From the NCBI GenBank assembly GCA_034660735.1, contig JAYEJQ010000056.1, positions 1-41,361 on the forward strand: a stretch of 41,361 nucleotides of DNA, written 5' to 3'. The position numbers and the translations under genes were made by a program. Below the pieces are notes generated by a model. It worked only from the letters and a program-made list of their open reading frames with translations. It searched no databases and had not been told where the DNA came from. The DNA comes from Patescibacteria group bacterium. GTDB lineage: Bacteria > Patescibacteriota > Patescibacteriia > JAACEG01. This document shows, piece by piece, positions 1 to 4,498 of this stretch (position 1 is its first letter; each line of letters starts with the position of its first letter).

Positions 1-146
1 AAAAGAAAAAAGAAAAAGAGAAGAAAAGGAAAAGTTAAAAAAACTTTTTGAAGGTCTTTTTTAAAAAGTTTTGAATTTATAAATGTTTCTGAAAATTTAT
101 TTAGTACTGGGGTAGGCGTAGTGAAAGCGAGGGTTAATAGCCCGTG

Positions 147-343
147 CCAATGCTTTGCATTGGAAATTTCAAGGACACAAGAAACAAGGACACAAATAAA
201 TTAAAAATTTCAATATCCAAATTTTAAATTGTTTGGAATTTGAGATTTGATTATTGAAATTTATTTGTAATTTGCCACCCTAATTGGTGGTCACCCGCAA
301 GGGTGATATCTTGAAATTTGGAATTTCTGCTGTAAAGCAGTGG
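147..343 (+). repeat. 23S intervening sequence (helix extension) at about E. coli position 650; contains repeat module copy 1 (164-269)
   Basis: Non-rRNA sequence between conserved gagggttaatagcccgtgcc and ggcgtgtcttataaacaagacccgaaacc. It is closed by the pairing gtgcc/ggcgtg. The 5' arm is A/C-rich and the 3' arm G/T-rich. Confidence 0.75.
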
Positions 344-870
344 CGTGTCTTATAAACAAGACCCGAAACCGGGTGATCTAACCATGGCCAGGATGAAGTC
401 CAGCGAAAGCTGTATGGAGGTCCGAACCCACTAGTCGTGCAACACTAGGGGATGAGCTGTGGCTAGCGGTGAAATTCCAATCGAACTCGGTAATAGCTGG
501 TTCTCCTCGAAATAGCTGTAGGGCTAGCCTCGGATAAATTGAAGTATGGGGGTAGAGCACTGAATGGGGCTCGGGGGAGCAATCCTACCGTCTCCAACCA
601 AACTCCGAATACCATATTTTTTACTCCGGGAGTTAGACTGTGGGGGCTAAGCTTCACAGTCAAAAGGGAAACAGCCCAGATCGCCATCTAAGGTCCCTAA
701 ATTTATACTAAGTGTGAAAAGTGGTGAGACAACTCAAACAACCAGGAGGTTGGCTTAGAAGCAGCCATCCTTTAAAGAAAGCGTAACAGCTCACTGGTCA
801 AGTCGTCTTGCGCTAAAAATGTATCGGGGCTAAGTATAATACCGAAGATGCGAGTTGATGCGAAGCATCA

Positions 871-1004
871 GAAATTTCAAAGACACAAGAAACAAGGACG
901 CAAATAAATTAAAAATTTCAATATCCAAATTTTAAATTGTTTGGAATTTGAGATTTGATTATTGAAATTTGTTTGTATCTTGTTGCTTGGAATTTGGAAT
1001 TTCT
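871..1004 (+). repeat. 23S intervening sequence in helix 45 (E. coli ~1170); contains repeat module copy 2 (872-977)
   Basis: Lies between accgaagatgcgag... and ...gcggtagaggagcattctg, the E. coli CACCGAAGCUGCGG...GGGUAGGGGAGCGUUCUG context. 872-977 matches 164-269 with 3 mismatches in 106 nt by eye. Confidence 0.8.
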
Positions 1005-1310
1005 GATGTTTTGCATCAGCGGTAGAGGAGCATTCTGTTTGCGTTGAAGCCATATCGCGAGGTATGGTGGAGCGGATAGAAGAGAGAATGTTGGCATGAG
1101 TAACATAAAGACAGGTGAGAACCCTGTCCACCGTAAGCCTAAGGTTTCCTGGGCAACGTAAATCGACCCAGGGTTAGTCGGTCCTAAGGCGAGTCTAGTG
1201 TAGTGCTAGGGTAGTCGATGGATAAGCTGGTTAATATTCCAGCACCACTTTTAAATGCTAAAAAGATGCGTGGTTTAAAAGATTAAGCATACTATGGTTT
1301 GTGTGTTTTT

Positions 1311-1447
1311 CGTGTCTCACTTTCGTTTGATACGACGTAGAATAACGTAGACTAAACGTAGATTAATGCAGAATAATAATTTATTTCTGCGTAGTTCGGC
1401 GTAAAGTCAACGTAGTTCAGCGCCGTGGCAAGCGGTAGCGAGACGCG
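1311..1447 (+). repeat. Hairpin element H, copy 1 (137 nt), inserted in the 23S domain III variable region
   Basis: cgtgtctc...gagacgcg long imperfect palindrome, near-identical to 2119-2253 and 2511-2647. Confidence 0.85.
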
Positions 1448-1643
1448 GAGAAAAGGCTGCGCTACGGCAAAGCTTATTTAATTAAATAAATTACCTAGAA
1501 AAGTTTTTTTGGCTTCAGTTTAATAGTGTCCGTACTAAAACCGACACAGGTAGGCGAGGCGAGTAGCCTCAGGTGAACGAGAGAACCTTTGTTCAGGAAC
1601 TAGGCAAAACAACGGCCGTAATTTCGAGATAAGGCCTGTCCAG

Positions 1644-1990
1644 CCAATGCTTTGCATTGGAAATTCCAAATCCAAAATCTTAAATCACAAATAAATTCAA
1701 AATTAAAAAATATTGTTATTCCGAACTTAATTCGGAATTTGCCCGATTGCCTTGCATTAATTGAGGCGGGTCTGTCATTACTATTTACTATATTATGATT
1801 AAGATAGATAAAACTTTAAATATTATAGTTTATCTTATTGAGTAGTATTTAGTCGGCGGTAAGCGCAGATCCTGAAACAAGTTCAGGATGACAGGTTTTT
1901 TAAAAAGTTTATAATTAAATATTTGAATTTTAATTATTGTAATTTATTTGGAATTTAGAATTTGTAATTTGGTGCTTCCGATGCAGAGCA
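1644..1990 (+). repeat. Large (~350 nt) 23S intervening sequence at about E. coli 1710-1750, with a nested family-A element
   Basis: Lies between conserved ggccgtaatttcgagataaggc and gactgtttagcaaaaaca. An A/C-rich arm (1663-1712) faces a G/T-rich arm (1900-1975). The 23-nt junction gccaatgctttgcattggaaatt (1643-1665) is identical to 146-168. Confidence 0.75.
1713..1893 (+). mobile_element. Family-A MITE-like palindromic element, copy A1, nested inside the 23S insertion
   Basis: Terminal hairpins ttgttattccgaacttaattcggaat and atcctgaaacaagttcaggatgaca. The internal block tgcccgattgccttgcatta...ggcgg..tctgtca.tac is shared with 38540-38585. The block actatattatgattaagat is shared with 4550-4558 and, inverted, with 5078-5096. 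Confidence 0.7.
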
Positions 1991-2118: not shown

Positions 2119-2253
2119 CGTGCCTCACTATCGTTTGACACGACGCAGAATAAGGCAGACTAAACGCAGACTAATGCAGAATAAATTTATTTTTGCGTAG
2201 TTCGGCGTAAAGTCAGCGTAGTTCAGCGCCGTGGCAAGCGGCAGCGAGGCGCG
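2119..2253 (+). repeat. Hairpin element H, copy 2 (135 nt), inserted in the helix 68 region (E. coli ~1860-1880)
   Basis: cgtgcctc...gaggcgcg. Flanked by conserved gtccgaacgttaaggaaggggg and gaagcgcggatgaacgccggcgataactataa. Confidence 0.85.
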
Positions 2254-2510
2254 GAGAAGCTTCTGACTGAAGCGCGGATGAACGCCGGCGATAACTATAA
2301 TCGTCCTAAGGTAGCGAAATTCCTTGTCGGGTGAGTTCCGACCTGCACGAATGGCATAACAACTTGGGGACTGTCTTAACAAAGGACTCGGTGAAATTGC
2401 AATACGAGTAAAGATGCTCGTTACCCGCGGCTGGACGAAAAGACCCCGTGAAGCTTTACTACAGCTTGATATTGGATTAGGGTTATGCATGTTCAGAATA
2501 GGTGGGAGTT

Positions 2511-2647
2511 CGCGTCTCACTATCGTTTGACACGACGCAGAATAACGTAGACTAAACGCAGACTAATGCAGAATAATAATTTATTTCTGCGTAGTTCGGC
2601 GTAAAGTCAACGTAGTTCAGTGCCGTGGCGAGCGGCAGCGAGACGCG
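2511..2647 (+). repeat. Hairpin element H, copy 3 (137 nt), in the L1-stalk region (E. coli ~2110-2180)
   Basis: cgcgtctc...gagacgcg, between conserved aataggtgggag and gagataccaccc. Confidence 0.85.
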
Positions 2648-2698
2648 GACACTAGTGAGATACCACCCTTGTATATTTTTAATCCTAACCCTGCGCCG

Positions 2699-2838
2699 TT
2701 ATTGGCTACTAAATAAAATTTTTAATTTTTAATTTTGTAATTTTATAAATAATTTTTAATGCTTAAATTTTTTAAAAATAATTTTATTTAAATGTTTAAA
2801 AATTAAAAATTATAAAATTGGAAATTTAGTATTCAATA
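2699..2838 (+). repeat. Extremely AT-rich 23S intervening sequence in the helix 79 region (E. coli ~2200-2225)
   Basis: Lies between cctaaccctgcgccg and ccggtgcgggaacagtatctggtggg. Closing stem ttattggctactaaat / atttagtattcaata. Confidence 0.7.
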
Positions 2839-3127
2839 CCGGTGCGGGAACAGTATCTGGTGGGTAGTTTGACTGGGGCAGTGACCTCCTAAAGAGTAAT
2901 GGAGGTGTTTACAAAGGTTGGCTATTCCGGGATGGAAATCCGGAAGATAGTGCAAACGCATAAGCCAGCTTTACTGCAAGATTTACAAATCGAGCAGTTG
3001 CGAAAGCAGAAGTTAGTGATCCGACCGTTCAATATAGGATGGCGGAAGCTCAACGGATAAAAGCTACTCCGGGGATAACAGGCTAGTCTGGTCCAAGAGT
3101 TCACATCGACGACCAGGTTCGGCACCT

Positions 3128-3973
3128 CAACATATCGGGGCGCCATCTCGAGTAATCGAGTAAATAAATTTGGCTTATAACGGTGGACTCCATAATTAAT
3201 TTAGCCTATAATATATATTAAATATTTAAATATATAAAATTATGGACAATACCGTGGGAAGTCTAACTCAATATCAATTATCAATCATCATTGGTTCAAT
3301 TTTAGGCGATGGATATATTAGGCAAATAAAAGGAAGAAAAGACGCTTTTTTAGAAATCAATCATTCTATAAAAGCTAAAAAATATGTAGACTGGAAATTT
3401 GACGCCTTAAAAAATATATGCAAATCACCGCCAAAACAAAGAATTATTGATGAAAGAAGAACGGCTTATCGTTTTTATACTAAACAACATAGTGAATTAA
3501 GCGCTTTGCTTAAGTTGTTTTATAAAAACAAAAGAAAGATAATACCGTCTTCATTAGTATTAAATCCGCTAATTTTAGCAGTTTGGTTTATGGACGATGG
3601 AAGCAAATCAAGAAAATATGATGTTTATCTTAATACTCAGCAATTTTCATTAAATGACCAAAAAGCACTTCTTAAAAGATTGCGTGATTTAGGACTCAGA
3701 GCAAGGTTAAACAAAGATAAAAAATATTACCGCATACGATTTTTAAAAGAGAGTATTTCTAAATTAAATGAAATTATTTCGCCTTATGTAATAGAGTCTA
3801 TGAAATACAAATTGAGTTATGACCCCGTAGAGACTTGATTTTAAAATCAGAGTTCCGCAAATGCGCGGAGCTAATACGCCAACTCCGTTTATTGATAAAA
3901 ATGGAAGAAGATATAGTCCATGCCATTAGTAATAATGGAAAGTAATTCCGAATTTACGGGATGAAATAGACAG
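3128..3973 (+). mobile_element. Group I intron in 23S rRNA, inserted after the residue equivalent to E. coli U2500 (peptidyl-transferase centre)
   Basis: Joining ...ggttcggcacct (ends 3127) to cgatgtcggctcgtcc (starts 3974) restores the conserved GGCACCUCGAUGUCGGCUC. The 5' exon ends in U and the intron ends in G (gacag). A candidate guide sequence ggggcgcc (3137-3144) can pair with ggcacct, giving a U-G wobble at the splice site. The core-like string gaagatatagtcc is at 3907-3919. An ORF sits in the intron. Confidence 0.8.
3242..3838 (+). CDS. LAGLIDADG homing endonuclease (double-motif, 198 aa), intron-encoded
   Basis: Two LAGLIDADG-type motifs: IIGSILGDGYI near the N-terminus and LAVWFMDDGS at about residue 112. 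Located inside the 23S intron. Confidence 0.85.
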   Translation: MDNTVGSLTQYQLSIIIGSILGDGYIRQIKGRKDAFLEINHSIKAKKYVDWKFDALKNICKSPPKQRIIDERRTAYRFYTKQHSELSALLKLFYKNKRKIIPSSLVLNPLILAVWFMDDGSKSRKYDVYLNTQQFSLNDQKALLKRLRDLGLRARLNKDKKYYRIRFLKESISKLNEIISPYVIESMKYKLSYDPVET

Positions 3974-4498
3974 CGATGTCGGCTCGTCCTATCCTGGGGC
4001 TGAAGAAGGTCCCAAGGGTTTGGCTGTTCGCCAATTAAAAGGGCACGCGAGCTGGGTTCAGAACGTCGTGAGACAGTTCGGTCTCCTATCCGCCGTGGGC
4101 GTTGAAATTTGAGAAGGCGCATTCCTAGTACGAGAGGACCGGAATGCATAAACCTCTAGTGCACCAATTGTTCTACCAAGGGCATCGTTGGGTAGCTATG
4201 TTTAGTTTGGATAAGCGCTGAAAGCATCTAAGCGCGAAGCCGTCTTTAAGATTAGATTTCTCAGATCTCCCAGAGACTATGGGATTGATAGGCCGTATGT
4301 GTAAGTTTGGCAACAAATTTAGCAGAGCGGTACTAATAGATCGTTTTTTTCTCCGCGCTTTTCTGTTTGAAAAGTTGTGGAACTATAAGAATGTCCAGTT
4401 TTGGCGCTCGTTAACGCGTTTATAATTTCGGATTTCAGATGTCGGATTTCAGATTTGGAATTTTGAAAATTATTTTTTATATTGATATATAAAAAACA

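Follow-up and report, generated by a model that had tools for sequence, protein, structure and literature searches.

A Patescibacteria 23S rRNA gene interrupted by a group I intron, two families of repeated hairpins and a MITE-like element

An interrupted 23S rRNA gene at a contig end

The 41,361-bp contig JAYEJQ010000056.1, part of an NCBI metagenome-assembled genome (MAG) with the host name 'Patescibacteria group bacterium', begins inside a 23S ribosomal RNA (rRNA) gene. The whole contig was analysed and is referred to below as the window. The locus is a genuine, conserved 23S gene with nine interruptions, and it is probably a working, single-copy gene; the host is an ABY1-type Patescibacteria (candidate phyla radiation, CPR) bacterium. 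The interruptions comprise a group I intron with an endonuclease open reading frame (ORF) and eight hairpin-type inserts, six of which are copies of two repeat families, three of family A and three of family B. One of the B copies also carries element D, which resembles a miniature inverted-repeat transposable element (MITE).

On direct reading, native 23S sequence begins at about window position 105, equivalent to about position 617 of the E. coli gene (E. coli 23S numbering is given as Ec throughout), which leaves helices H9 and H25 off the contig. From there to position 4356, 4,252 nt correspond to about 2,290 nt of E. coli 23S, and seven blastn blocks against E. coli rrlH, all collinear, run from Ec 668 to Ec 2891 (Table 1). 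This agrees with the first-pass annotation, which had estimated that about 4.2 kb of collinear sequence covers about 2.3 kb of the E. coli gene. The Rfam model LSU_rRNA_bacteria (RF02541) matches the plus strand at 188-4356 with 1566 bits; the 5' end of this match is imposed by the contig end, which truncates the gene. Both the sarcin-ricin loop and the peptidyl-transferase motifs read as intact, and core identity to relatives is 96.9-99.7%. Housekeeping genes flank the gene, and the 5S gene, tRNA genes downstream of it and housekeeping genes come directly after. One 23S copy is usual per CPR genome (PMC11270868).

All nine interruptions proposed by the first-pass annotation proved real when compared with the 23S gene of a relative that lacks them, L004, and with a covariance-model alignment, both of which were used to refine the boundaries. 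The coordinates first given hold to within a few bases, except at H45, where 871-1004 becomes 857-1017. Nor are these segments ordinary variable helices of the lineage: the median gaps at six of the sites in 121 loci are smaller (Table 1). What does not stand is their independence: the supposedly separate interruptions include six copies of two repeat families. The helices that carry the hairpin-type inserts (the H28 loop, about Ec 653, H45, the H58 position, H63, H68, H78 and H79) are presumably surface-exposed in 50S structures.

Comparison with L004 places these gains in time. L004 is a 100-kb ENA scaffold from a relative, reached via the neighbouring SBP gene, whose protein is 82% identical. 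Its complete 23S gene, of 4,171 nt, is far from the scaffold ends and has a core 96.9% identical to that of the window; locus L005 shows the same arrangement from an independent assembly. At five sites (H45, H58, H68, H78 and Ec 653) L004 has hairpins of 10-18 nt where the window has elements of 137-197 nt, and it lacks all six A and B copies as well as the intron. It has inserts of its own, namely a B-family copy at H25 and others at H28, H63 and H79. Absence of six inserts and the intron from a 97% relative means that they are recent gains, mobile and not essential, and speaks against functional expansion segments fixed in the lineage.

A wider survey supports the same direction of change. 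Probing with a lineage-specific form of a conserved 23S segment recovered 119 further loci, most of them from ABY1-type CPR groups (Uhrbacteria, Falkowbacteria and Komeilibacteria, for instance); the window and L004 bring the total to 121. Gaps were measured from anchor to anchor at six sites. No site is expanded in 101 of the 121 loci, at least one is expanded in the other 20, and only the window is expanded at all six. Together with the median gaps, this indicates that short hairpins are ancestral and that the window inserts are gains.

Could the locus instead be a decaying extra copy (pseudogene), or an assembly chimera made by its repeats, with the real 23S gene uninterrupted? The contig does start inside the gene, repeats are known to break assemblies, and a single contig is in view. 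Even so, this explanation is very improbable. The core is collinear and complete from Ec 617 to the 3' end at the identities given above, its functional motifs are intact, and the expected genes lie directly downstream. The A copies diverge from one another by 8-9%, and the unique 23S sequence on either side of each is the one expected there. In addition, the similarly interrupted gene of the relative was assembled twice independently, once within a 100-kb scaffold, and CPR genomes usually have a single 23S gene (PMC11270868).

Table 1. Features of the window, with the counterpart in the relative L004, predicted folds (z-scores against shuffled controls) and anchor-to-anchor gaps in the 121-locus survey.
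Feature	Positions	Strand	Site, E. coli equivalent or remark	Counterpart in L004	Fold (kcal/mol; z)	Gap in window; survey median (nt)
Tail of H28-loop insert	1-104	+	Apical loop, about Ec 612-616; A-rich, 3' part only	Different insert of about 340 nt		
23S rRNA gene, 3' four-fifths	105-4356	+	About Ec 617-2904; 5' part lost at contig end			
B1, family-B hairpin, 197 nt	147-343	+	H27 multiloop, about Ec 653; replaces 14-nt lineage-specific hairpin	CCAATTTTAATTGG	-78.8; -8.6	
blastn block vs rrlH	359-852		Ec 668-1162			
B2, family-B hairpin, 161 nt	857-1017	+	Replaces tip of H45, classical intervening sequence (IVS) site	18-nt hairpin TCGGAAATTTATTTCCGA	-58.3; -9.7	171; 28
blastn block vs rrlH	1021-1245		Ec 1186-1404			
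A1, family-A hairpin, 141 nt	1309-1449	+	H58 position, domain III	18-nt hairpin CTTGCCTTTCGGGGCAGG	-64.2; -7.8 (antisense -51.1)	284; 198 (domain III)
blastn block vs rrlH	1538-1635		Ec 1608-1704			
B3, 355 nt	1643-1997	+	Family-B hairpin in H63; about 200 nt added at apex, including D1	Unrelated 129-nt AU/GU hairpin	-113.7; -7.3 (composite)	359; 19
D1, MITE-like element	1728-1895	+	Nested in B3 apex; aligns with D2 and D3			
blastn block vs rrlH	2023-2116		Ec 1773-1866			
A2, family-A hairpin, 137 nt	2118-2254	+	Replaces apical hairpin of H68	CCTGTTTACAGG	-67.5; -8.6	142; 15
blastn block vs rrlH	2256-2508		Ec 1875-2127			
A3, family-A hairpin, 141 nt	2509-2649	+	Replaces apical hairpin of H78 (L1 stalk)	ATCTTCGGAT	-73.1; -10.5 (antisense -62.5)	149; 16
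H79-tip insert, AT-rich hairpin, 140 nt	2699-2838	+	Without ORF	531-nt insert with two ORFs	-27.2; -3.4	144; 9
blastn block vs rrlH	2835-3128		Ec 2211-2501			
Group I intron	3128-3972	+	After U2500; bounds from uninterrupted L004 allele	Uninterrupted		
Intron ORF, LAGLIDADG homing endonuclease, 198 aa	3242-3838	+	Pfam LAGLIDADG_2, E = 2.7e-42, profile 2-168 of 168			
blastn block vs rrlH	3974-4344		Ec 2501-2891			
D2, degenerate D copy	4497-4640	+	23S-5S spacer			
5S rRNA gene	4732-4839	+	Rfam RF00001, 85.4 bits			
D3, complete D copy	4985-5133	-	Between 5S and tRNA-Tyr		-50.6; -8.2	

Repeat families, a shared basal module and element D

The two families were detected by direct-repeat search, motif counts and alignments. 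A1, A2 and A3 (137-141 nt) are 91-92% identical in pairwise comparisons, and a family-A 32-mer occurs three times in the window, always within the 23S gene, where none is expected by chance. B1 and B2 are 92% identical over 125 nt and have in common a 58-mer with two occurrences in the window against 0 expected. Each end of B3 aligns with one half of B1, of B2 and of the H25 copy in L004; B3 is therefore a third B copy whose apex gained about 200 nt. Neither family has a copy in the other 36 kb of the window.

All A and B elements fold as long imperfect hairpins, with z-scores between -7.3 and -10.5 relative to shuffled controls. Many pairs in family A are G·U, which gives its sense strand an advantage of 10-13 kcal/mol in stability over the antisense strand. 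Comparison with L004 indicates that A and B elements replaced, rather than split, a small native hairpin, and no target-site duplication was found at the three A junctions relative to the L004 alleles. At the H58 position, the covariance model threads A1 as H58 with a 98-nt loop insert. None of the window inserts matched a ribozyme or any other family in an E-value search of Rfam. A resemblance of B2 to plant miRNA precursors was set aside, as the matches were sub-threshold and reflect a generic long hairpin.

The interior of family A (window 1330-1425, 2140-2230 and 2530-2625) is built of periodic units of 10-11 nt, with 5'-arm units of the form ACGYAGAMTAA pairing with 3'-arm units like TAGTTCRGCG. 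This periodicity spaces single mismatches by roughly one turn of the helix. No true match to a degenerate 11-nt motif derived from this interior was present in any of the retrieved loci.

The other two hairpin-type inserts are those at H28 and H79. Frame 1 of the H28 insert (window 1-51) reads KRKKKKRRKGKVKKTF and then a stop, which may be the C-terminal tail of an insert-borne ORF cut by the contig end. The different insert of L004 at this site has a ribosome-binding site (RBS) and a 45-aa ORF; the two inserts have only their last approximately 13 nt in common, within a shared 60-nt block that continues into native 23S sequence. The termini of the H79 insert are homologous to those of the L004 insert at H79. 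It is extremely AT-rich and folds weakly (Table 1), and most relatives have a gap of only 0-10 nt here.

Although the full family-A element is present in none of the other surveyed 23S loci, its base is more widely distributed. A search of 122 23S loci found the family-A basal arms, 5' YGTGYCTCACTWWCGTTYGNCAC and 3' GTGRYGRGCGRYAGCGAGRCRCG, as correctly spaced pairs in six other loci. These arms form a basal duplex of about 25 bp. In the other loci the module sits at about Ec 230, H25, H45 and H78, which with H58 and H68 of the window gives six sites. It lies on the rRNA sense strand in 12 of 12 cases from seven loci (11 modules from the paired-motif search and one added by hand). The six other genomes are only 81-86% identical to the window in their 23S core, and their distal stems are unrelated AU-rich tandem-repeat duplexes. 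A module found at six helices in genomes this distant, yet absent from a 97% relative, points to mobility.

Alignment of the 12 modules gives a 22-pair basal stem that is 95.8% paired. Five pairs have changes on both sides, amounting to 11 double-change cells, while ten pairs are invariant, as are an A×C mismatch and a G·U pair. None of 500 shuffles reached the observed number of double-change cells, proportion of pairing or covariation score, whereas 45 of the 500 reached five double-change pairs. An outer stem that covaries around a centre conserved in sequence fits a recognition element better than a neutral palindrome.

Related bases occur elsewhere in the survey. For example, locus L023 has four inserts (H25, H63, H68 and H78) that form a family of their own, with copies 69-88% identical; two have an A-type base and two an R-type base (GCGCTTCGCT...AGCGGAGCG), which differ mainly by transitions. 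Occupation of one gene by several copies thus recurs, and the base types vary on a single theme. A further type, the Q base (CCAATGCTTYGCATTGG...CCACTGCGGAGCAGYGG), is common to B1 and B3 of the window and to inserts in L114, L021 and L106, a grouping made by eye.

The 3' arm of family A (GTGGCGAGCGRYAGCGAG) resembles a native conserved 23S segment, GTGGCGAGCGAA, which is found some 15-20 nt 3' of the insertion site at about Ec 230 in L126 (oriented 472-632), L132 (3954-4066) and L023 (81-186). From sequence likeness, this may be a clue to the origin of the module. Two scans of viral contigs with a gapped pattern of the family-A module gave no matches.

Element D differs in kind from A and B. 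It is about 150 nt long, and each of its terminal inverted repeats contains the hairpin TGTCATCCTGAAtttaTTCAGGAT; in the complete copy D3, these hairpin-bearing repeats read TGTCATCCTGAA... Its 19-mer core, ACTATATTATGATTAAGAT, occurs three times against 0.06 expected. With terminal inverted repeats and three copies in both orientations, nested as well as intergenic, D behaves like a MITE. All three window copies are in the rRNA locus, with none in the other 36 kb. D sequence is also found in L009 (406-552), L011 (600-662) and L004 (9335-9409).

The behaviour of D raises the question of whether A and B are themselves ordinary DNA transposons (MITEs or palindrome-associated elements), with their RNA structure a by-product and only copies in tolerated loops and orientation surviving. 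A and B do have terminal inverted repeats in which each arm is a small palindrome (e.g. GTGTC-N12-GACAC), like the ends bound by recombinases or single-strand transposases. Their distribution across genomes is patchy, and D, truly MITE-like, has copies outside the gene. This origin nonetheless seems improbable. A and B leave no target-site duplication and replace the native hairpin instead of splitting it, they occur only within 23S (none in the other 36 kb) and in the sense orientation (12 of 12 modules), and no transposase gene is nearby. Moreover, arm-specific sequences with an invariant G·U pair and A×C mismatch indicate selection on RNA rather than on a DNA inverted repeat. A transposon origin concerns how the elements move, and is compatible with excision of their RNA by RNase III.

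The group I intron and the surroundings of the gene

The intron boundaries, GGCACCU|CAACAU...GACAG|CGAUGUCGG, have a 5' exon ending in U and an intron ending in G. Intron-less alleles are found in L004 and L011, both uninterrupted, and the 3' end of the L011 23S gene is 99.7% identical to the window. The intron core aligns with ORF-less introns at the same 2500 site in L038 and L019, and the L038 intron is recognised by Rfam Intron_gpI (52.2 bits, threshold 50). Four conserved blocks are common to the introns of the window, L038, L019 and L117, including GAAGATATAGTCC, which we take to be J8/7-P7. The L117 intron is 94% identical to that of the window over its 5' 85 nt, while the 23S core is only 82.7% identical, which fits horizontal homing. 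The intron would self-splice from the RNA, and its endonuclease would copy it into intron-less alleles. An exact look-up of the intron ORF in public assemblies gave no record. Introns at this site vary in their last nucleotide: with bounds taken from the uninterrupted exon, those of L038, L019 and L117 end in A and not the expected G, while those of the window, L127 and L055 end in G.

Inserts in relatives can also be coding. Small orphan ORFs (45-100 aa) with a strong AAGGAGG RBS occur in relatives' inserts and spacers, at L004 5520-5657, 7524-7745, 7773-7967 and 8945-9247, in the H45 insert of L037 and in the H79 insert of L040. The two ORFs in the L004 H79 insert are paralogues. In a Pfam scan of the ORFs in relatives' inserts, none matched except in L056, and 23S_rRNA_IVP was not found. 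The exception is the H63 insert of L056 (locus 2587-2910, minus strand), which encodes an 89-aa GIY-YIG nuclease (E = 1.9e-17); H63 can therefore host quite a different selfish element.

Several observations concern the surroundings of the gene. In the 23S-5S spacer of the window, 4432-4467 can form a long AU/GU-rich helix with 4679-4714. The style of this spacer (GGAAUUU/AAAUUCC repeats) is like that of the distal stems in family B, a hint that the cell may treat spacers and inserts alike. In L004, a promoter-like TTGACA...TATATA and a 21-bp processing stem formed with the 3' flank precede the 23S gene (4400-4560, 3966). A CGAGCG/CGYUCG duplex common to this processing stem and the family-A module is too short to be meaningful. 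The EPSP synthase gene lies upstream of the 23S gene of L004 and the 16S gene is not there, so the rRNA genes are unlinked. In the window genome, LytB-GcpE-EPSP genes lie about 22 kb downstream, and the locus has therefore been rearranged between the two.

The neighbouring SBP gene matched only a 2.3-kb Logan contig of the same organism, and the 5' part of the 23S gene was not recovered; an identical SBP gene is present in SRA run SRR26901925. Synteny with the rRNA operon is lost at locus P0013, and the P0003 contig ends before the 23S gene. Two contigs of one closely related MAG also stop within the gene: L037 (DAOWHA010000075.1) ends about 20 nt before the H68 site and L011 (DAOWHA010000064.1) starts at about Ec 2384. 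The assembly gap between them covers exactly the region of A2 and A3 in the window, suggesting that repeats such as these break CPR rRNA assemblies.

Processing, spread and relation to known systems

The first-pass annotation had argued that so many inserts imply either an extensively fragmented 23S rRNA or a ribosome with large expansion segments. Both outcomes are reasonable, but insert density alone is not surprising, because multi-insert 23S genes are already documented as the usual state in CPR bacteria (PMC11270868, PMC9297842).

Of the two, fragmentation is the reading we favour, with some reserve: a working 23S gene carries a group I intron, mobile hairpins of the IVS type and the MITE-like element D, and the hairpins are excised by RNase III so that the rRNA is fragmented. 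Selfish elements of three kinds (intron, hairpins and D) would have colonised the gene. The eight IVS-type stem-loops would each have replaced the small apical hairpin of a helix, and families A and B would have spread within the gene by a DNA-level copy-and-replace process. On the precursor rRNA, the long imperfect duplexes would be recognised by a double-strand-specific endonuclease, most likely RNase III, and removed without religation. The mature 23S rRNA would then consist, in the visible part, of about nine or more non-covalently held pieces, with predicted lengths of roughly 42, 513, 291, 193, 120, 254, 49 and 673 nt in addition to the upstream part.

The IVS-type assignment draws on well-described elements. 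An IVS is a tetraloop replaced by an extended stem-loop, at H9, H25 or H45 and sporadic among strains, which RNase III cuts mid-stem without religation (PMC4990558). The window hairpins likewise are extended stem-loops in place of small apical hairpins. By predicted folds and the 22-pair basal stem, their complementary termini form duplexes of at least about 20 bp. They are sporadic among close relatives, being absent from L004 and with only 20 of 121 loci expanded. Every sequence-level property of an IVS is thus present except the canonical site, which only B2, at H45, occupies; hence the IVS-type reading. In addition, ORFs preceded by an RBS in relatives' inserts at the same sites make sense only if the insert RNA is released.

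A number of points weigh against this reading. We infer excision, the enzyme and the fragment pattern alike, and H45 is the only classical IVS site among the eight hairpin sites. In a bacterium, rRNA pieces as short as 42 and 49 nt would be out of the ordinary. The movement of families A and B is explained by neither a target-site duplication nor a partner enzyme, and the full family-A element is so far unique to the window contig. A family-A 20-mer had zero matches in 185,579 reference genomes and one in JGI metagenomes, a chance match inside an unrelated coding region without rRNA. For the intron, a search of window 3100-4000 with Rfam Intron_gpI gave no match at E <= 1. An RNase III gene was not among the 18 window proteins scanned, which is uninformative with only 41 kb visible, and, in a view limited to one 41-kb contig, a second and uninterrupted 23S gene is possible.

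Retention of the hairpins in the mature rRNA as expansion segments is unlikely. It would give the ribosome about eight additional helical arms, each 60-65 bp long, with H68 and the L1 stalk among their sites. Such an arm, about 18 nm long, on the tip of H68 or the mobile L1 stalk would be near the E site, as we presume from 70S structures. It speaks for retention that the hairpins are stable, sense-strand-specific and conserved at their base. Most of the sites also correspond to places of retained eukaryotic expansion segments (ES): H25 (ES7), H45 (ES15), H63 (ES27), H78 (ES30) and H79 (ES31). A retained expansion segment would be a stable, lineage-wide extension of a helix, and here the nearest relatives lack it: the hairpins are absent from the 97% relative and the intron from the 99.7% relative, so both are dispensable and recent. 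The distal stems are wholly different between genomes and look like tandem repeats grown by slippage, and the same sequence occupies three structurally unrelated sites, making a site-specific function unlikely. Brown et al. 2015 (as summarised in PMC11270868 and PMC9297842) reported that transcripts lack the insertions of CPR rRNA genes.

A bolder extension of the excision reading, which is offered only tentatively, is that A, B and the related R and Q bases represent a new class of rRNA-specific mobile hairpin cassette in ABY1-type CPR bacteria. The base (about 25 bp, with the invariant A×C and G·U) would serve as a portable module recognised by a processing or integration enzyme, while slippage would lengthen the variable distal stem. 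Such a cassette would take the place of apical tetraloops on many helices, increase in number inside a single gene, pass between distant genomes and in this way set the number of 23S pieces (nine or more).

Interrupted 23S genes as such are already known from CPR bacteria. Insertions of at least 100 bp relative to E. coli, a definition under which all nine window inserts fall, occur in 82% of 348 CPR 23S genes. A single gene may hold as many as 16, and together they add 1.3 kb on average and 5.75 kb at most; group I introns, often encoding a LAGLIDADG protein, account for about 45% of the insertions (Tsurumaki et al., PMC11270868). The published insertions (PMC9297842, PMC11270868) resemble those of the window in host group, in their positions at the tips or bases of stem-loops and in their mixture of LAGLIDADG group I introns and short ORF-less inserts, including at H25 and H45. 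The extra length of the window gene, about 2.1 kb, falls within the published range. The differences are that the window inserts form multi-copy families, share a basal duplex with distant genomes and vary in presence between near relatives. That survey left short (<200 bp) ORF-less inserts 'uncharacterized', and the word 'repeat' is absent from its main text (PMC11270868). Literature searches returned no account of IVS families with several copies, or of a conserved base shared by such inserts, in CPR bacteria. What is new is therefore the repeat families, the basal module and the sites at H58, H68 and H78.

Classical IVSs (Salmonella, Yersinia, Leptospira, Campylobacter, Coxiella and alphaproteobacteria; PMC4990558) share with the window hairpins a replaced tetraloop, termini of at least 25 bp, sporadic presence in close relatives, use of H45 and, in some relatives' inserts, small ORFs. 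However, they number one or two per gene at H9, H25 or H45, whereas the window has eight, including at H58, H68, H78 and H79, with one family occupying three helices and RNase III cleavage inferred. Their 23S_rRNA_IVP-type ORFs were not found in the Pfam scan of relatives' inserts.

The intron, in turn, resembles other large-subunit (LSU) group I LAGLIDADG introns (organelles, Coxiella, Thermotoga, CPR) in its place in the peptidyl-transferase region, an ORF in a peripheral loop, U and G ends, an intron-less allele in close relatives and a core homologous to an Rfam-recognised intron at the same site; it differs in falling below the Rfam threshold itself. The 2500 site is probably among those listed as unreported outside CPR (PMC11270868). 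Bacterial MITEs and palindromic repeats are likewise short, non-coding and multi-copy, with terminal inverted repeats and occasional nesting. D fits this description well, whereas A and B differ in lacking a target duplication, in being confined to 23S and the sense strand, and in retaining G·U and A×C features specific to RNA. Should the hairpins be excised, the closest parallels in architecture would be the fragmented LSU rRNAs of Euglena (14 pieces; PMC7672448) and trypanosomatids (PMC6411936), with many non-covalent pieces and breaks in variable regions. Those are eukaryotic, fixed in their lineages and served by dedicated machinery, whereas breaks in the window gene would be recent, variable between near relatives and derived from mobile hairpins.

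In summary, the short non-intron inserts of CPR 23S genes can be a few hairpin families that multiply within one gene and turn over between near-identical relatives. A basal duplex conserved across distant genomes and six helices gives a defined RNA motif of about 25 bp for work on RNase III, and permits a systematic covariance-model search. Hairpin repeats of this kind help to explain the poor assembly of CPR rRNA operons and the failure of 23S-based primers and probes. If excision does take place, this would be among the most fragmented bacterial 23S rRNAs known, with breaks that include H68 and the L1 stalk.

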